From the IMG/VR virus record IMGVR_UViG_2529292728_000022: a stretch of DNA of 6,456 nt; one strand, written 5' to 3'. Below are positions 47-6,456 of this stretch, piece by piece (within the stretch, counting starts at the first letter, position 1; each line of letters starts with the position of its first letter). The position numbers and the translations under genes were made by a program. Below the pieces are notes generated by a model that saw only the letters and a list, made by a program, of their open reading frames with translations, was not told the origin of the DNA and did not search any database. The stretch is from a virus. Lineage: Duplodnaviria > Heunggongvirae > Uroviricota > Caudoviricetes.

Positions 47-3000
47 ATGGCGACGTTACGTGAACTGATTATCAAAATTTCGGCAAATTCACAGTCATTC
101 CAGTCGGAGATCCAGCGGGCGTCCCGTATGGGCAGTGAATATTACCGGACCCTGCAGAATGGCGGACGTCAGGCTGCTGCGGCAGCCAGGGAGCAGCGAC
201 GTGCCCTGGCAGAACTGAACAGCCAGTTGACGGAAATCCGCGCTTCGGCTGTCGGAATGACCGGTGCGTTTGCCGGTGCCTTTGCCACCGGACACCTGAT
301 TTCTCTGGCGGATGAGTGGAGTTCCGTGAATGCCCGTCTGAAACAGGCATCACAGTCATCCGATGAATTTTCGTCATCACAGAAAGTGCTGATGGATATC
401 AGTCAGCGGACAGGCACGGCATTTTCGGATAATGCGGCCCTGTTTGCCCGTTCGGCTGCCTCGATGCGTGAATATGGTTACAGTGCTGATGATGTGCTGA
501 AGGTGACGGAGGCCATTTCCACGGGGCTGAAAATCTCCGGTGCCAGTACGGCTGAGGCGGGTTCGGTGATCACCCAGTTCAGCCAGGCGCTGGCACAGGG
601 TGTGTTGCGCGGTGAGGAATTTAATTCGGTCAATGAAAGTGGTGACCGGATCATTCGTGCACTGGCTGCAGGCATGGGCGTGGCCCGTAAAGATCTGAAG
701 GCGATGGCGGACGACGGCAAACTGACGGCGGATAAAGTCGTGCCCGCGTTAATCAGCCAGCTGGGGACATTGCGTGATGAATATGCCGCCATGCCAGAAA
801 CGGTCTCTGACGGGATCACAAAGGTGGAAAACGCCTTTATGGCCTGGGTGGGTGGTGCGAATGAGGCCAGCGGGGTGACAAAAACGCTCTCCGGCGTGCT
901 GAACGGTGTTGCCGGACAGATTGATAATGTGGCAACAGCCGTGGGGGCACTGGTTGCCGTCGGGGTTGCCCGGTACTTTGGCAATATGGCCTCCGGAGCG
1001 ATGTCTGCCACGGCAGGACTTGTGACGGCTGCACGTAATGAAGTTGCACTGGCGGAAGCACAGTTCAGGGGAACGCAGATTGCCACGGCGCGGGCAAGAG
1101 CAGCCGTGTACCGTGCTCAGCAGGCCGTGGCGGCAGCCCGCGGGACGGAGATGCAGATTGCAGCAGAGGCCCGTCTGGCGGCCACACAGGAACGCCTGAA
1201 CAGAAATATTGCTGCCAGAACCGCCGCCCAGAATGCGCTGAACAGTACAACGGCGGTGGGCTCACGTCTGATGAGCGGTGCGCTGGGACTGGTTGGAGGC
1301 GTACCCGGACTGGTGATGCTGGGAGCTGCCGCATGGTACACGCTGTACCAGAATCAGGAACAGGCCAGGGAGTCTGCGCGCCAGTATGCACTGACGATAG
1401 ATGAAATCGCGCATAAAACGCCATCAATGTCTCTGCCTGAAGCCTCAGATAACGAAGGGCGAACACGGGCGGCGCTGACAGAGCAGAACCGGCTGATTGA
1501 TGAGCAGGCCAGCCGGGTGAAATCCCTGCAGGAAAAAATCGCCGGGTATCAGTATGTGCTGGCTAATCCGGGCTGGACGACCGGTAACGGCTTCATGATA
1601 AACCATCTGACCTCGGTGAAGACCGTAACGGAAGGGCTTGCTCAGGCAACAGAGCAGCTTGCCGTTGAGCAGTCCCGTCTGGCACAGATGCAGGAAAAAG
1701 CGCAGTCCATTCAGGATGTGCTTGCCGGGCTGGAAGACCGTCGTGTGGCGTTAATTCGTCAGCAGGCGGCAGAGCAGAATAAGGTGTACCAGTCCATGCT
1801 GGTTATGAACGGTCAGCATACGGAATTCAACCGTCTGCTGGGGCTGGGTAATGAACTGCTTCAGCAGCGGCAGGGACTGGTGAATGTGCCGTTACGGCTG
1901 CCACAGGCCACTCTGGATGATAAACAGCAGAGTGCCCTGACAAAAACAGAGCGTGAGCTGGCCCTGTCCAGACTGAAAGGGGAAGAAAAAGAGCGTGTCC
2001 GGCTGGGGTATGCGGCGGATGACCTCGGTTTTGTGGGTGATCCGTATCAGGAGGCGAGACAACGTTATATCAGTAATGCCCTGGAAGCCTGGCGCAATAA
2101 CGAGGCGAATAAACCCAAATCCCGGGGTGGAAAATCAGAGACGGAAAAAGCGGAAGACAGTTTTTCCCGGCTGCTGAAGCAGCAGAAAGAGCAACTGGCA
2201 CTGGCCGGTCAGAACACGGAGCTGGCGAAGCTGAAGTACCAGACAGCGCTGGGTGAACTGAAAACCCTGTCGGAGATACAGAAGCAGGAGCTGCTGCGTA
2301 ACGCGGCCCTGATTGACCAGCAAAAAATCCGGGAACAGTTGCGATCCCGGGAAGAGACCCTGAAGAATGATAATGTGGCTGCGCGTGCATCAAATGAAGC
2401 CGAACTGCTGGGGTACGGGCAGGGAGAACGAGCCAGGGAACGCATGCGGGAGTTGCAGCAGATCCGCGACAGCTTCCGCCAGAAGGATGCGGACCTTCAG
2501 TCTCAGTATCAGACCGGGGATATCAGTGAGGATTTTTACAGACAGGCGCTGGCGCAGAATGCACAGTATCTGAGTGAACGTCTGAAAGAGCAGGAAGCCT
2601 TTTATGCCGAATCGGATGTGCAGCGTGCGGACTGGCAGAAAGGGCTGCAGGAGGGATTCAGTAACTGGGTGGATAATGCGTCCGATTACGCCTCACAGGC
2701 AGCACAGCTTGCGACGGAGGGTATCTCAGGGATGGTGAATAACATCACGGAGATGCTGAACGGAAATAAAGTGGAATGGCGCAGCTGGGCCTCATCAGTG
2801 CTGCAGGAAATATCAAAAGTTCTTATGAATGCCGCGATTGTCAACGGAATTAAGACGGCGGCAAACGGTATGTCCGGTGCGGGAGGATTTCTCGGCAGCA
2901 TTGGTGACTGGCTGGGCGGGGCGGTGGCCAATGCAAAAGGCGGCGTGTATACCTCGGCAAACCTGAGTGCGTACAGCAACAGTATTGTGGATACGCCCAC

Positions 3001-3289
3001 GTACTTTGCCTTTGCAAAAGGGGCCGGGCTGATGGGGGAGGCCGGACCTGAAGCCATTATGCCTCTGACGCGGGCGGCGGATGGCTCGCTGGGTGTGCGA
3101 GCGGTGGGCAGTATGAACGGTAGTGCGGGTCTGGTGTATTCCCCGGTCTACCATATCGCCATTCAGAATGACGGGACTAATGGCCAGATAGGGCCGGAAG
3201 CTGCGGGCACCCTTGTGCAGCTGATTGACCAGCGGGTGCAGGCGGTGATGCTGTCCATGCGACGTGACGGAGGAATGCTGAGTGGCTGA
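47..3289 (+). CDS. H: Tail length tape measure protein (lambda gpH functional equivalent), 1080 aa
   Basis: Longest ORF, directly upstream of M-L-K-I-J homologs (the lambda position of H). ATG at 47 with GGAG SD. Ala/Gln/Arg/Glu-rich low-complexity helical sequence typical of tape measures, with hydrophobic Gly/Ala-rich segments (e.g. ...GALVAVGVARYF..., ...SGALGLVGGVPGLVMLGAAAWY...). The C-terminal region (...NDGTNGQIGPEAAGT...MRRDGGMLSG) matches my recollection of the lambda gpH C-terminus. The N-terminal two thirds do not look lambda-like to me. Confidence 0.88.
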   Translation: MATLRELIIKISANSQSFQSEIQRASRMGSEYYRTLQNGGRQAAAAAREQRRALAELNSQLTEIRASAVGMTGAFAGAFATGHLISLADEWSSVNARLKQASQSSDEFSSSQKVLMDISQRTGTAFSDNAALFARSAASMREYGYSADDVLKVTEAISTGLKISGASTAEAGSVITQFSQALAQGVLRGEEFNSVNESGDRIIRALAAGMGVARKDLKAMADDGKLTADKVVPALISQLGTLRDEYAAMPETVSDGITKVENAFMAWVGGANEASGVTKTLSGVLNGVAGQIDNVATAVGALVAVGVARYFGNMASGAMSATAGLVTAARNEVALAEAQFRGTQIATARARAAVYRAQQAVAAARGTEMQIAAEARLAATQERLNRNIAARTAAQNALNSTTAVGSRLMSGALGLVGGVPGLVMLGAAAWYTLYQNQEQARESARQYALTIDEIAHKTPSMSLPEASDNEGRTRAALTEQNRLIDEQASRVKSLQEKIAGYQYVLANPGWTTGNGFMINHLTSVKTVTEGLAQATEQLAVEQSRLAQMQEKAQSIQDVLAGLEDRRVALIRQQAAEQNKVYQSMLVMNGQHTEFNRLLGLGNELLQQRQGLVNVPLRLPQATLDDKQQSALTKTERELALSRLKGEEKERVRLGYAADDLGFVGDPYQEARQRYISNALEAWRNNEANKPKSRGGKSETEKAEDSFSRLLKQQKEQLALAGQNTELAKLKYQTALGELKTLSEIQKQELLRNAALIDQQKIREQLRSREETLKNDNVAARASNEAELLGYGQGERARERMRELQQIRDSFRQKDADLQSQYQTGDISEDFYRQALAQNAQYLSERLKEQEAFYAESDVQRADWQKGLQEGFSNWVDNASDYASQAAQLATEGISGMVNNITEMLNGNKVEWRSWASSVLQEISKVLMNAAIVNGIKTAANGMSGAGGFLGSIGDWLGGAVANAKGGVYTSANLSAYSNSIVDTPTYFAFAKGAGLMGEAGPEAIMPLTRAADGSLGVRAVGSMNGSAGLVYSPVYHIAIQNDGTNGQIGPEAAGTLVQLIDQRVQAVMLSMRRDGGMLSG

Positions 3290-3623
3290 GATAAAAACGC
3301 TGCATCTGGTCCCGCGTGAAGGGATGCAGGTGAGTGAGAAGCCGTCGGTGGTGAGGGTGCGGTTTGGTGACGGTTATGAACAGCGCCGCCCCACAGGGCT
3401 GAATCCTCAACTGAAGACGTTTCAGGCGGTGTTCCGGGTGACGGATGAGTCAACCCGGCGCTGGCTGGAAGAGTTTTTATCGTGGCATGGTGGTTACCGT
3501 GCCTTTTTGTGGCGACCGCCGAAACATAACCGGACGGTGAGGGTTGTGTGCCGTGAGTGGAGTGTCACGGATAATGCCCGGTACAGTGATTTCAGTTGCA
3601 CGATAGAGCAGGTGGTGAACTGA
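3282..3623 (+). CDS. M: Minor tail protein M (lambda gpM homolog), 113 aa, GTG start
   Basis: The ORF opens right after an in-frame TGA at 3279-3281. The GTG at 3282 is preceded by GGAGG (3268-3272, spacing 9). The sequence ...KTLHLVPREGMQVSEKPSVVRVRFGDGYEQRRPTGLNP...FLWRPP...EQVVN aligns with recalled lambda gpM (...VRKVRFGDGY...FLWTPP...EQVVN). It overlaps the 3' end of H by 8 nt. Confidence 0.85.
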   Translation: MAEIKTLHLVPREGMQVSEKPSVVRVRFGDGYEQRRPTGLNPQLKTFQAVFRVTDESTRRWLEEFLSWHGGYRAFLWRPPKHNRTVRVVCREWSVTDNARYSDFSCTIEQVVN

Positions 3624-4321
3624 TGCAGGATATTCACGAAGAAAGCCTGAACGAGTCGGTTAAATCAGAGCAGTCACCGCGGGTGGTGCTCTGGGAAATT
3701 GACCTGACGGTGCAGGGTGGTGAGCGGTATTTTTTCTGCAATGAGCTGAATGAAAAAGGGGAGGCGGTTACCTGGCAGGGGCGGCAATATCAGGCATACC
3801 CGATTGACGGCAGTGGCTTTGAGATGAACGGGAAGGGCAGCAGTGCCCGCCCGTCGCTGACGGTGTCGAATCTGTTCGGTCTGGTCACCGGAATGGCGGA
3901 GGACCTGCAGAGCCTGGTGGGGGCCACGGTGGTCCGCCGCCGGGTGTATGCCCGTTTTCTGGATGCGGTGAATTTTGTGGCGGGCAATCCGGAAGCGGAC
4001 CCGGAGCAGGAGCTGAGCGACCGCTGGGTGGTGGAGCAGATGTCAGAGCTGACGGCCATGACAGCCTCGTTTGTGCTGGCAACACCGACGGAGACGGACG
4101 GAGCGCTGTTTCCCGGTCGCATTATGCTGGCGAATACCTGTATGTGGGATTACCGGGGAGATGAATGCGGGTATAACGGTCCTGCGGTGGCGGATGAGTT
4201 CGACAACCCCACCACGGATATCCGTAAGGACAGATGCAGCAAGTGCATGCGCGGGTGTGAGATGCGCGGCATGGTGGCTAATTTTGGCGGTTTCCTTTCC
4301 ATTAATAAACTTTCGCAGTAA
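3623..4321 (+). CDS. L: Minor tail / tail tip protein L (lambda gpL homolog), 232 aa
   Basis: ATG at 3623 overlaps the M stop as TGATG and is preceded by AGGTGG (3610-3615). The N-terminus MQDIHEESLNE...VVLWEIDLT...ERYFFCNE matches recalled lambda gpL; the C-terminus has the clustered cysteines (C..C..CxxC..C) and ends GGFLSINKLSQ. The TTG at 3596 offered by the ORF track is rejected as the start. Confidence 0.88.
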   Translation: MQDIHEESLNESVKSEQSPRVVLWEIDLTVQGGERYFFCNELNEKGEAVTWQGRQYQAYPIDGSGFEMNGKGSSARPSLTVSNLFGLVTGMAEDLQSLVGATVVRRRVYARFLDAVNFVAGNPEADPEQELSDRWVVEQMSELTAMTASFVLATPTETDGALFPGRIMLANTCMWDYRGDECGYNGPAVADEFDNPTTDIRKDRCSKCMRGCEMRGMVANFGGFLSINKLSQ

Positions 4322-4331
4322 ATCCCGGTTT

Positions 4332-5075
4332 ATGACACAGACTGAATCAGCGATTCTGGCGCATGCCCGGCGGTGTGCGCCTGCGGAGTCGTGCGGCTTC
4401 GTGGTGAGAACGCCGGAGGGGGAGCGGTATATCCCTTGTGTGAATATCTCTGCAGAGCCGGAGGCGTATTTTCGTATCGCACCGGAAGACTGGCTGCGGG
4501 CAGAGATGCAGGGGGAGATTGTGGCACTGGTCCACAGTCATCCCGGTGGTCTGCCCTGGCTGAGCGAGGCCGACCGGCGGCTGCAGATAAAAAGTGCACT
4601 GTCCTGGTGGCTGGTCTGCCGGGGGGAAATTCATAAATTCCGCTGTGTGCCACATCTGACAGGACGGCGCTTTGAGCACGGGGTGACGGACTGTTACACG
4701 CTGTTCCGGGATGCATACCATCTGGCGGGAATTGATATGCCGGATTTTGAGCGTGAGGATGACTGGTGGCGCAACGGTCAGAACCTGTACCTGGACAATA
4801 TGGAGGCGACTGGTTTTTACAGGATTTCCCTGCCTTCCGCACAGCCTGGCGATATCCTGCTGTGCTGCTTTGGCGCATCGGTGGCCAATCATGCCGCCAT
4901 ATACTGCGGCAACGGTGAGCTGCTTCACCATCTGCCTGAACAACTGAGTAAACGGGAGAGGTATTCCGAAAAATGGCAACGACGAACGCATTCAGCCTGG
5001 CGTCACCGCCACTGGCACGTATCTGCCTTCACGGGGATTTACAACGATTTGGCCGCCGCCTCAGCCTGTATGTGA
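4332..5075 (+). CDS. K: Tail tip assembly protein K (lambda gpK homolog), JAB/MPN + NlpC/P60 domains, 247 aa
   Basis: ATG at 4332, 10 nt after the L stop. The N-terminus MTQTESAILAHARRCAPAESCGFVV matches recalled lambda gpK. A JAMM motif is directly visible (HSHPGGLPWLSEAD = H-x-H-x7-S-x2-D), as are NlpC/P60-type Cys and His contexts (GVTDCYTLF ... NHAAIYCG). The ORF-track start at 4071 lies inside L in another frame and is rejected. Confidence 0.85.
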   Translation: MTQTESAILAHARRCAPAESCGFVVRTPEGERYIPCVNISAEPEAYFRIAPEDWLRAEMQGEIVALVHSHPGGLPWLSEADRRLQIKSALSWWLVCRGEIHKFRCVPHLTGRRFEHGVTDCYTLFRDAYHLAGIDMPDFEREDDWWRNGQNLYLDNMEATGFYRISLPSAQPGDILLCCFGASVANHAAIYCGNGELLHHLPEQLSKRERYSEKWQRRTHSAWRHRHWHVSAFTGIYNDLAAASACM

Positions 5076-5653
5076 ACACGGCAGCGGAAGCCATCCGTGC
5101 CCTGTCGATGCAGATGCCGGGATTCCGCCGTCAGATGAACGAAGGCTGGTACCAGATACGTATTCGCGGTGAGGACACGGCACCGGAGGCGGTGTACGCC
5201 CGTCTTCACGAACAGCTGGGTGAGGGAACGGTCATCCACATTGTGCCGCGACTGGCCGGGGCCGGAAAGGGTGGACTGCAGATTGTGCTGGGGGCGGCAG
5301 CCATCGTGGGCTCTTTCTTCACTGCCGGGGCATCAATGGCGTTATGGGGTTCAGCCCTGGCAGCCGGTGGTTTTTCTGCCACCACGATGCTGTTTTCACT
5401 GGGGGCCAGCATGATTCTGGGTGGTGTGGCTCAGATGCTGGCCCCGAAGGCTAAAGTACCGGAGTACAAAAGCACGGATAACGGCAGACAGAACACGTAC
5501 TTTTCCTCGCTGGATAACATGATTGCCCAGGGGAACCCGATGCCGGTGCCTTACGGTGAAATGCTGGTTGGCTCCCGGCGAATCTCCCAGGACATCAGTA
5601 CCCGTGATGAAGGCGGTGGCGGAAAGGTCGTGGTTATCGGGCGGCAGGGGTAA
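4973..5653 (+). CDS. I: Tail tip assembly protein I (lambda gpI homolog), 226 aa
   Basis: ATG at 4973, in a different frame from K and overlapping its last 103 nt. The N-terminal segment (...ARICLHGDLQRFGRR...AIRAL...GWYQIRI...VIHIVPRLAGAGKGG) fits the gpI ubiquitin-like region and is followed by a Gly/Ala-rich hydrophobic segment. The end ...QNTYFSSLDNMIAQGNPMPVPYGEMLVGSRRISQDI matches recalled lambda gpI. Stop TAA at 5651-5653. Confidence 0.8.
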   Translation: MATTNAFSLASPPLARICLHGDLQRFGRRLSLYVNTAAEAIRALSMQMPGFRRQMNEGWYQIRIRGEDTAPEAVYARLHEQLGEGTVIHIVPRLAGAGKGGLQIVLGAAAIVGSFFTAGASMALWGSALAAGGFSATTMLFSLGASMILGGVAQMLAPKAKVPEYKSTDNGRQNTYFSSLDNMIAQGNPMPVPYGEMLVGSRRISQDISTRDEGGGGKVVVIGRQG

Positions 5654-5654
5654 A

Positions 5655-5685
5655 AAGAATAAAAAAATCCCGCAGAGTTGCGGGG
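5655..5685 (-). terminator. Rho-independent terminator on the - strand at the left edge of the I-J gap
   Basis: Seen in sequence: on the - strand, stem cccgca(5684-5679) / loop acuc / ugcggg(5674-5669), with a possible extra G-U pair, followed by UUUUUUUAUUCUUUUU (+ strand A-run 5652-5667). On the + strand the hairpin is followed by acagacaaag, so it is not a + strand terminator. The U-tract overlaps the stop codon of I. Confidence 0.5.
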
Positions 5686-5752
5686 ACAGACAAAGATTAA
5701 CGTTAAGGAGTTATTTTTGTTTCTGGTGCTCGGGCAAAAAAAACATTAACGC
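5655..5752 (-). ncRNA. Candidate ~100-nt small RNA (moron-like) transcribed leftward between I and J
   Basis: Inference from a - strand promoter (-35 at 5781-5786, -10 at 5759-5764) with a predicted start near 5752 and the - strand terminator at 5655-5685. No ORF with a plausible RBS in the transcript. Contains a 16S-3'-end-like CUCCUU motif and internal self-complementarity (5' CGUUAA vs UUAACG). Confidence 0.22.
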
Positions 5753-5758
5753 AGAGAA

Positions 5759-5786
5759 ATTATTAGCACCACAGTCAGTTTGTGAA
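5759..5786 (-). promoter_or_regulatory. Candidate sigma70 promoter on the - strand (TTCACA-N16-AATAAT)
   Basis: Seen in sequence: - strand -35 TTCACA (+ coords 5781-5786, 5/6 to TTGACA), 16-nt spacer, -10 AATAAT (+ coords 5759-5764, 5/6 to TATAAT), with an AT-rich stretch upstream. A G lies 7 nt downstream of the -10 (about + 5752). Confidence 0.3.
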
Positions 5787-5823
5787 AATGTGAAGATATT
5801 CAGAAGTTTTATTCAATCATGAT

Positions 5824-5854
5824 ACAGGCATCCTCCGGGATGCCTGTTGTTTTT
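5824..5854 (+). terminator. Rho-independent terminator on the + strand, 35 nt upstream of the J start
   Basis: Seen in sequence: perfect 10-bp stem acaggcatcc(5824-5833) / loop tccg / ggatgcctgt(5838-5847), followed by tgttttt (5848-5854). On the - strand the same hairpin is followed by AUCAUGAUUGAAU, which is not U-rich, so it is + strand specific. Confidence 0.55.
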
Positions 5855-5888
5855 GTGCGTAACAGTTATCACAGTAAAGGGTGAGACA

Positions 5889-6456
5889 ATGGGCAAAGGT
5901 GGCGGCAAGGCGCACACGCCGGTAGAGGCAAAGGACAATCTTAAGTCCACGCAGATGATGAGCGTGATTGATGCCATTGGTGAAGGGCCGATTGAAGGTC
6001 CGGTGAAGGGGCTGCAGAGTATCCTGGTGAACAAAACCCCGCTGACGGACACGGACGGTAATCCTGTGATACATGGTGTGACAGCGGTCTGGCGCGCCGG
6101 GGAGCAGGAGCAGACACCACCTGAAGGCTTTGAGTCCTCCGGGGCGGAAACCGCACTGGGCGTGGAAGTGACGAAGGCAAAGCCGGTGACGCGCACCATT
6201 ACGTCCGCGAACATTGACCGCCTGCGGGTCACCTTCGGGGTGCAGTCACTGTTGGAGACCACCTCAAAGGGCGACCGTAATCCCTCTTCTGTCCGACTGC
6301 TGATTCAGTTACAGCGTAACGGTAACTGGGTGACGGAAAAGGATGTCACCATTAACGGCAAGACCACCTCGCAGTTTCTGGCGTCGGTGATTCTGGATAA
6401 TCTGCCTCCCCGTCCTTTTAACATCCGGATGGTCCGGGAGACAGCGGACAGCACCT
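5889..6456 (+). CDS. J: Host specificity / central tail fibre protein J (lambda gpJ homolog), N-terminal ~189 aa only; continues beyond the window
   Basis: ATG at 5889 preceded by AAAGGGTGAG. The translation MGKGGGKAHTPVEAKDNLKSTQMMSVIDAIGEGPIEGPV...AGEQEQTPPEGFESSG...TITSANIDRL...TSKGDRNP...LPPRPFNIRM is open to the window end and closely matches the recalled lambda gpJ N-terminus. It is absent from the ORF track because it has no stop in the window. Confidence 0.9.
   Translation, partial: MGKGGGKAHTPVEAKDNLKSTQMMSVIDAIGEGPIEGPVKGLQSILVNKTPLTDTDGNPVIHGVTAVWRAGEQEQTPPEGFESSGAETALGVEVTKAKPVTRTITSANIDRLRVTFGVQSLLETTSKGDRNPSSVRLLIQLQRNGNWVTEKDVTINGKTTSQFLASVILDNLPPRPFNIRMVRETADST

Follow-up and report, generated by a model that had tools for sequence, protein, structure and literature searches.

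Genes K and I of phage lambda encode two tail-tip assembly proteins, which Iyer, Burroughs and Aravind described in 2006 as a functional pair, predicting that the JAB (JAMM) peptidase domain of K frees the ubiquitin-like (Ubl) domain of I at its C-terminal glycine (PMC1779556). According to a 2025 conference summary of the work of A. Davidson, the Ubl of gpI is cleaved by lambda gpK, but only once gpI has joined the other tip proteins, so that stepwise assembly is enforced (PMC12908700). Here we describe the same pair at positions 4332-5653 of a 6,456-nucleotide (nt) stretch of DNA, hereafter the window, from a virus of the Caudoviricetes (IMG/VR record IMGVR_UViG_2529292728_000022). A sequence-only reading of this DNA had referred to published comparative genomics and had called the biochemical role of the pair poorly defined, a description now overtaken by the report on lambda, with which data on F-type pyocins agree. 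We hold with good confidence that K and I are a tail-tip maturation pair of the lambda type, in which the JAMM domain of K would remove the Ubl of I during tip assembly.

Two cryo-electron microscopy (cryo-EM) studies of lambda resolved residues 134/135-223 of gpI alone, as a trimeric plug gripping the C-terminus of the tape-measure protein (PMC10721106, PMC12617516), and gpK was detected in virions neither by mass spectrometry (PMC10721106) nor by cryo-EM (PMC10721106, PMC12617516). The virion mass spectrometry recorded gpI by one peptide, with 9.87% coverage (S2 Table of PMC10721106), a value that corresponds exactly to the C-terminal tryptic peptide 202-223 (22/223 residues). No peptide was reported from the trypsin-rich Ubl domain (PMC10721106), and this single-peptide coverage gives weak support to the absence of the Ubl from lambda particles. 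In F-type pyocins, the N-terminus of PA0640 was found by mass spectrometry in stalled tips and was gone from mature particles, and deletion of PA0639, the K homologue, resulted in tip-less tubes.

The product of gene K has two peptidase domains, which lie in the window as follows.
4332-5075, plus strand: gene K, tail-tip assembly protein, two-domain peptidase of 247 amino acids (aa), assigned by open reading frame (ORF), Pfam, PHROG 30, DNA identity and AlphaFold 2 (AF2) model.
4338-4646, plus strand: JAB/MPN+ (JAMM) metalloprotease domain, K residues 3-105 (Pfam Prok-JAB, PF14464, E 7.7e-16; Foldseek).
4386-4388, plus strand: JAMM catalytic residue E19.
4533-4574, plus strand: JAMM residues H68-S-H70...S78-E-A-D81 (HSHPGGLPWLSEAD, K residues 68-81).
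4662-5003, plus strand: NlpC/P60 (C40, papain-like) cysteine peptidase domain, K residues 111-224 (Pfam PF00877, E 3.5e-13; Foldseek).
4692-4694, 4890-4892 and 4926-4928, plus strand: NlpC/P60 triad C121, H187 and H199.

Both Pfam matches lie well above their cutoffs (58.4 bits against 25 for Prok-JAB, 49.9 against 23 for NLPC_P60), and K matches PHROG 30, ‘minor tail protein’, at E 4e-159. The JAMM motif is complete, E19 being joined by H68-S-H70-PGGLPWL-S78-EA-D81 to give E...HxH-x7-S-x2-D, while the triad residues stand in the contexts D-C-Y (C121), N-H-A-A-I-Y (H187) and L-H-H (H199), in the Cys-His-His order of C40 peptidases. Among 52 K homologues of at least 67% identity, E19, C121, H187 and H199 are invariant, with conservation of at least 90% at H68, H70, S78 and D81; both catalytic sets are also invariant in 12 K proteins from diverse phages of Escherichia, Klebsiella, Ralstonia, Burkholderia, Rhizobium, Pseudomonas, Stenotrophomonas and Vibrio. 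The AF2 model of K is confident (predicted local distance difference test, pLDDT, 87.4; predicted template-modelling score, pTM, 0.79). Its best Foldseek match in the Protein Data Bank (PDB) is JAMM1 of Pyrococcus furiosus (5ld9_A, E 2.7e-5, TM-target 0.65), followed for the N-terminal domain by Rpn11, CSN5 and AMSH, all four at probability 1.00, which identifies the MPN fold; the C-terminal domain matches MepS/Spr, LytE and the Acd autolysins, which identifies the NlpC/P60 fold. The top NCBIfam match of K is ‘desampylase’, with a score under its cutoff. By motif and fold K is thus a member of the JAMM/MPN+ family, and Zn2+ coordination and peptidase or isopeptidase activity on the C-terminus of a Ubl are predicted for it.

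The conservation of a second catalytic centre raises the question of which domain makes the cut. From enterobacterial to cyanobacterial phages, the triad C121/H187/H199 varies no more than the JAMM motif does; Iyer et al. noted that some prophage versions of K consist of NlpC/P60 only and that papain-fold enzymes are the commonest deubiquitinases (DUBs) (PMC1779556), and the meeting summary does not say which domain of gpK is the catalytic one (PMC12908700). It could be argued from this that the NlpC/P60 domain removes the Ubl or makes the decisive cut, with JAMM mainly binding the Ubl or having another substrate. We think this unlikely: a JAMM motif that is both complete and universally kept speaks for catalysis and not for binding alone, the JAMM domain of K is closest to a true deSAMPylase just as the Ubl of I is closest to SAMP and MoaD, and the same summary speaks of a ‘deubiquitinating domain’ of K (PMC12908700). 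We infer, then, that JAMM is the protease responsible.

What the NlpC/P60 domain does instead is a separate matter, on which literature searches for its role in K found nothing. Pfam, NCBIfam and Foldseek all group it with MepS, LytE and similar endopeptidases of the cell wall, as would suit a virion-associated peptidoglycan hydrolase that helps the tail to cross the cell wall. However, gpK has escaped detection in lambda virions by mass spectrometry and by cryo-EM (PMC10721106, PMC12617516), and its homologue is absent from F-pyocin particles. The K translation, moreover, has no obvious signal peptide, so that the protein would be cytoplasmic and apart from peptidoglycan. A wall-crossing role is on these grounds highly improbable, and gamma-D-Glu-mDAP (mDAP, meso-diaminopimelate) endopeptidase activity of the domain is doubtful, because K homologues are cytoplasmic assembly factors missing from particles. 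Since the triad is universally conserved, the domain needs explanation and is probably an active enzyme, with a putative cytoplasmic substrate. Given a cytoplasmic K that is absent from particles and an invariant triad, the domain could act on a tail-tip protein, and we raise as a tentative idea that K is a two-protease checkpoint enzyme whose NlpC/P60 domain has a protein substrate of its own in tail-tip maturation rather than peptidoglycan. Candidate events are a second cut in the hydrophobic linker of I, or C-terminal processing of the tape-measure protein.

The product of gene I has a three-part architecture, and its reading frame begins within K.
4973-5653, plus strand: gene I, tail-tip assembly/plug protein precursor, 226 aa (ORF; Pfam Lambda_tail_I; PHROG 32 and 4244).
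4973-5075, plus strand: K/I overlap of 103 nt, encoding the K C-terminal helix and the I N-terminal extension in two frames.
5012-5263, plus strand: Ubl domain (MoaD/ThiS/SAMP-type beta-grasp, as modelled), I residues 14-97.
5246-5275, plus strand: conserved Ubl C-terminal tail P92-R-L-A-G96-A97-G-K-G-G101, predicted K cleavage region (conservation, profile alignment).
5270-5446, plus strand: uncharged Gly/Ala-rich hydrophobic segment, I residues 100-158, 59 residues (composition, hydropathy).
5381-5650, plus strand: C-terminal plug domain, I residues 137-226 (E 2e-38 to the 90-residue chains of PDB 9e7m).

The I ATG is preceded, at a distance of about 10 nt, by a Shine-Dalgarno-like GGGAGAGG. 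Pfam Lambda_tail_I (PF06805) covers residues 15-97 of I (E 6.4e-16), and the whole protein matches lambda gpI at E 4e-95 (PDB 8iyk, 8k35, 8xcg) and the F-pyocin plug at E 1e-13 to 1e-20 (PDB 25vf and 9l9p). In the AF2 model the N-domain has the order beta-beta-alpha-beta-alpha-beta, which is that of a beta-grasp, and the top 50 Foldseek matches are nearly all ubiquitin-like proteins, SAMP and MoaD among them; the N-domain is, as modelled, a ThiS/MoaD-like beta-grasp. Between K99 and K159 the residues D, E, K and R are all absent, with hydropathy peaks near residues 113 and 148, and G107, G144 and G151 are invariant. The plug domain, with conserved positions N182, Q186, G187, P191, Y194, G195, G200, S201 and S205 among 79 homologues, is the counterpart of the sole part of gpI visible in lambda virions (residues 134/135-223). 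Most of what the sequence-only reading had picked out is borne out here: the two ORFs with JAMM plus NlpC/P60 and Ubl plus linker, for which the Pfam E-values and the conservation are far beyond chance, the intact catalytic residues of K, an N-terminus of I whose beta-grasp-like pattern came through the structural comparison, and PRLAGAGKGG, which occupies I residues 92-101 and is followed by the uncharged Gly/Ala-rich stretch. Neither of the two outcomes that this reading had named as refuting it turned up, the N-terminus of I being modelled as a beta-grasp and metal binding by K being judged from motif and fold.

The tail of the Ubl required a different reading. Its conservation was drawn from the same 79 diverse I homologues (33-60% identity), collected in an exhaustive representative search: P92 and G96 are each kept in 77/79, A or S at position 97 in 68/79 and G101 in 65/79, while position 100 is often a gap or Ala. 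Thirteen I proteins of distant phages share the pattern P-x-x-x-G-[S/A/N]-[K/G]-x-x-G. In a global profile alignment of I residues 14-97 with MoaD 1-81 and ubiquitin 1-76, G96-A97 falls opposite the terminal Gly-Gly; the scores are weak and the MoaD and ThiS sequences used are approximate, so the alignment serves as a guide only. The sequence-only reading had taken the ‘KGG’ for the Gly-Gly. Judged by both conservation and profile alignment, the family's equivalent of the ubiquitin Gly-Gly is G96-[A/S]97, within a motif P-x-x-x-G-[A/S], and not K99-G100-G101. We infer that cleavage would fall at or just after A97, with G101 as a possible alternative. A second Gly-Gly of I, G132-G133, immediately precedes the part that is resolved in lambda virions; it was considered as a second processing site and rejected, being unconserved and in a gap-rich region of the alignment.

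The same tail bears on whether the Ubl, once freed, is covalently attached to a phage or host target. Its conserved glycine resembles the C-termini of ThiS, MoaD and ubiquitin, and I shows the arrangement that Iyer et al. described in 2006, in which the Ubl closes with a conserved Gly and a Gly-rich low-complexity linker comes next (G96 in 77/79, residues 100-158). However, the tail is G-[A/S] and not G-G, and G96-A97 is followed by 129 residues of structural protein rather than forming a free Gly-Gly carboxyl terminus; the Ubl is fused ahead of that structural protein in the manner of the eukaryotic ubiquitin–ribosomal protein fusions. No E1/E2-like gene (ThiF, E1 or UBC domain) was found in the H-M-L-K-I-J window, by ORFs and Pfam, or in the lambda tail module, and the reported data, from the lambda summary and F-pyocin, show cleavage only. 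Without an E1/E2 gene, with a G-[A/S] tail and with the Ubl fused in cis, conjugation is unsupported and we give it very little weight. The sequence-only reading had left conjugation and processing side by side; the processing half stands, with Iyer et al. (2006), the lambda summary and F-pyocin behind it, whereas the conjugation half is not supported.

The maturation scheme that we favour would run as follows. Protein I would be made as a precursor consisting of the Ubl, the uncharged Gly/Ala-rich segment and the plug domain, the last of which would dock onto the J/L tip complex. The JAMM zinc-metalloprotease domain of K would then recognise the Ubl in the fashion of a deubiquitinase or deSAMPylase and cut I at the tail P92-x-x-x-G96-A97, freeing the Ubl. 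The processed tip could now accept the tape measure and M, while K and the Ubl would leave the assembly, K having no place in the final particle, and the C-terminal part of I would stay to plug the tail lumen and hold the C-terminus of the tape-measure protein. Most likely the Ubl would keep the hydrophobic precursor soluble and block later assembly steps, so that the cut would act as a checkpoint; such a role as chaperone or steric shield would be in line with the suggestion of the F-pyocin authors. For this scheme the present analysis shows which domains the two proteins contain and how these fold, that the catalytic residues of K are intact, that the tail motif is conserved and that K and I always occur together, while cleavage itself, its timing and the absence of K and the Ubl from particles are carried over from the literature on lambda and F-pyocin.

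Several observations weigh against this scheme. For the present locus, processing is a prediction from sequence and models, and the model of I is poor: full-length I, run with an alignment of 45 sequences (at least 64% identity), gave a mean pLDDT of 45, with 50-63 for the N-domain. A hidden Markov model built from 69 diverse I homologues and run against PDB sequences reached gpI-type entries only and not MoaD/ThiS, so that the beta-grasp assignment rests on fold comparison, and the hhalign probability of I against a single MoaD sequence is low. The residue opposite the final Gly of ubiquitin is Ala or Ser. The claim of cleavage in lambda comes from a meeting summary that names neither the K domain nor the cut site (PMC12908700), and papers of 2025-2026, one of them PMC12617516, continue to describe where gpK is located, or what its counterpart does, as unknown or unclear.

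The distribution of the pair is consistent with a joint function. Homologues of I were found by tblastn in 1,736/50,697 phage records, 1,627 of these covering at least 80% of the query. The diversity of the pair was sampled by tblastn on annotated phages, and in all 12 diverse loci examined a JAB plus NlpC/P60 protein adjoins a Ubl-bearing I; the order H-M-L-K-I-J is kept in 11 of the 12, Vibrio phage P2 having genes inserted between K and I. Two apparent exceptions were rejected as counter-examples, namely the ‘Ubl-less’ I of Klebsiella phage KL3, which is frameshifted, and the ‘K-less’ Synechococcus phage S-H1, in which K is split. In the latter phage JAMM and NlpC/P60 occupy two adjacent overlapping ORFs (L091 1736-2517), by a real split or a frameshift, and the I homologue (L091 2459-3757) is 432 aa long with a long C-terminal extension.

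This constant pairing also bears on a proposal that would make K an anti-defence enzyme. Hor et al. speculated on the basis that the central tail fibre is the target to which Bil attaches a Ubl and that some siphophage tail assembly proteins carry DUB domains, and K acts on a tip complex that contains J; K might on this account, wholly or additionally, be a deubiquitinase stripping host Bil-type Ubl modifiers from J. Yet K is always paired with an I that carries its Ubl in cis, which accounts for the DUB domain without Bil, and the K homologue PA0639 is needed for F-pyocin assembly without any defence system, its loss leaving the tubes without tips. The anti-Bil role is speculative and is not required by the data on K, and we consider it distinctly unlikely.

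In distant phages, morons or other foreign genes have entered repeatedly at the K-I and I-J junctions: HK022 carries moron genes (L088 2215-2439 and 3119-3439), including at the I-J position, Ralstonia phage Dina has a moron at the same position (L085 3146-3735), and the insertion in Vibrio phage P2 is an antirepressor/KilA-N cassette (L093 840-2433). The databases also hold chimeric proteins that join K to I, as well as L to I and L to K (P0161, P0145, P0236, P0240, P0007, P0097 and P0078; PHROG 28576). As I lies in the -1 frame of K, programmed -1 frameshifting to a K-I fusion was considered and rejected: the K-I chimeras switch frame at varied points inside the 103-nt overlap and are mostly singletons, and for this reason look like assembly errors or pseudogenes. 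No X-XXY-YYZ slippery site was seen at the start of the overlap.

The surroundings of K and I are those of a lambda-type tail-tip module on the plus strand, with the gene order H-M-L-K-I-J by ORFs and Pfam.
47-3289, plus strand: gene H (tape measure), 1080 aa.
3282-3623, plus strand: gene M.
3623-4321, plus strand: gene L, tail-tip hub protein, directly 5' of K (Pfam Phage_tail_L, E 4.6e-92).
5890-6456, plus strand: 5' part of gene J (central tail fibre), assembly partner of I (MGKGGGKAHTP..., the start of lambda J; labelled J in related records).

Annotated lambdoid phages of E. coli O55, O80 and O157, as well as Shiga toxin (Stx)-converting phages, share 96-98% DNA identity with the window over the K-I segment, and in their records both genes carry the labels tail tip assembly proteins K and I; a related-locus search with close I alignment returned relatives at 93-99% identity only. 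The locus is an intact orthologue in a very common E. coli prophage family, real but ordinary, and the finding is a rediscovery of a module already known, predicted in 2006 and by now addressed experimentally. As to the tape-measure protein H, its 1080 aa compare with 853 aa for lambda gpH, and it has a TMP_3 domain, an HK97-type TLTM domain and the lambda C-terminal domain; its C-terminal quarter contains a Gly-rich stretch, GMSGAGGFLGSIGDWLGGAVANAKGG, reminiscent of the Gly-rich region where a protease cleaves lambda gpH.

Comparison with lambda brought to light a discrepancy in the reference sequence (J02459/NC_001416), which is one base short in the 5' part of K, reading GAGGC-TATTT against GAGGCGTATTT here (window 4466-4470), at about record position 14,267 (about 3768 in L001). 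As a consequence the first ~45 codons of the JAMM domain, that of the catalytic Glu among them, lose the reading frame, and the record gives K a length of 199 aa. More than 20 other records of lambda or its derivatives have the base, several of which still copy the 199-aa annotation, and the K ORF of Lambda imm21 is 247 aa long. The exact 247-aa K protein occurs on at least 1,000 contigs and the 199-aa form on 194; ten contigs with a 199-aa K gene call all carry the base and are shortened for other reasons. The missing base is most likely a reference error or a change private to that stock.

Between I and J lies a spacer with its own predicted signals.
5654-5889: I-J spacer, 236 nt, low in G and C.
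5786-5759, minus strand: predicted sigma-70-like promoter.
5684-5660, minus strand: predicted intrinsic terminator, abutting the I stop codon, about 90 nt downstream of the minus-strand promoter.
5752-5660, minus strand: predicted transcript of ~90 nt.
5824-5857, plus strand: predicted strong terminator, 32 nt ahead of the start of J.

The spacer is present in 1,120/5,426 complete E. coli genomes, and its variants are mosaic and range from 60 to 1599 nt, with the promoter kept (as a perfect TATAAT in some) and the hairpins kept by compensatory changes. Rfam gave no family match in the spacer. Going by these sequence signals, the spacer is a candidate small-RNA or moron unit of the prophage.

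The K/I pair is among the clearest cases in bacterial viruses of a Ubl matched with a protease of the JAMM deubiquitinase type, most likely employed as an assembly checkpoint and not as a signal. It bears on the pre-eukaryotic origin of ubiquitin-processing enzymes, and on the ordered building of siphophage tails and of the tailocins under development as antibacterials. The present locus adds no new principle; its practical results are the motif P-x-x-x-G-[A/S], the universality of both catalytic centres of K, and the tracing of the textbook 199-aa lambda K to one missing base.

Among the known systems with which the pair can be compared, the plug domain of phage T5 pb3 occupies the same tip-lumen position as the gpI tripod, with a proposed outer-membrane insertion (PMC10721106), but the T5 plug sits inside the hub protein as one of its domains, with no Ubl and no K-type protease. 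Archaeal JAMM1 with SAMP1/SAMP2 provides the best structural match for both the JAMM domain of K and the Ubl of I (PDB 5ld9/5lda; Haloferax volcanii SAMP1, 3po0/4hro), P. furiosus JAMM1 having also been solved bound to the ubiquitin-like SAMP2 (PDB 5lda). The likeness is that of a minimal JAMM domain acting on a MoaD-like Ubl tail, an action that for K is predicted. SAMPs are free modifiers, ended by GG and conjugated by an E1, whereas K/I has an N-terminal Ubl fused in cis and ending in a G-[A/S] tail, no E1 was found in the window or the lambda tail module, and JAMM is fused to NlpC/P60.

In eukaryotes, UBA52 and RPS27A consist of an N-terminal ubiquitin fused to a ribosomal protein, from which a DUB removes the ubiquitin during or after incorporation; their likeness to I is one of analogy only, since the protease families, organisms and assemblies differ. 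The F-type pyocin PA0639/PA0640 is a homologous pair, with only the C-terminal part of the plug retained in mature particles and with a K homologue that is essential for the tip and absent from particles, although it belongs to a tailocin from Pseudomonas and not to a phage. Lambda itself differs from the window in a gpI to which I is about 66% identical (tblastn), with AGAKSGG in the linker where AGAGKGG stands here, in an I-J spacer of 60 nt against 236 nt, and in the reference annotation of K, shortened by the missing base where the K of the window is intact, whereas the H-M-L-K-I-J order, the 103-nt K/I overlap, the two-domain K and the three-part I are alike in both.

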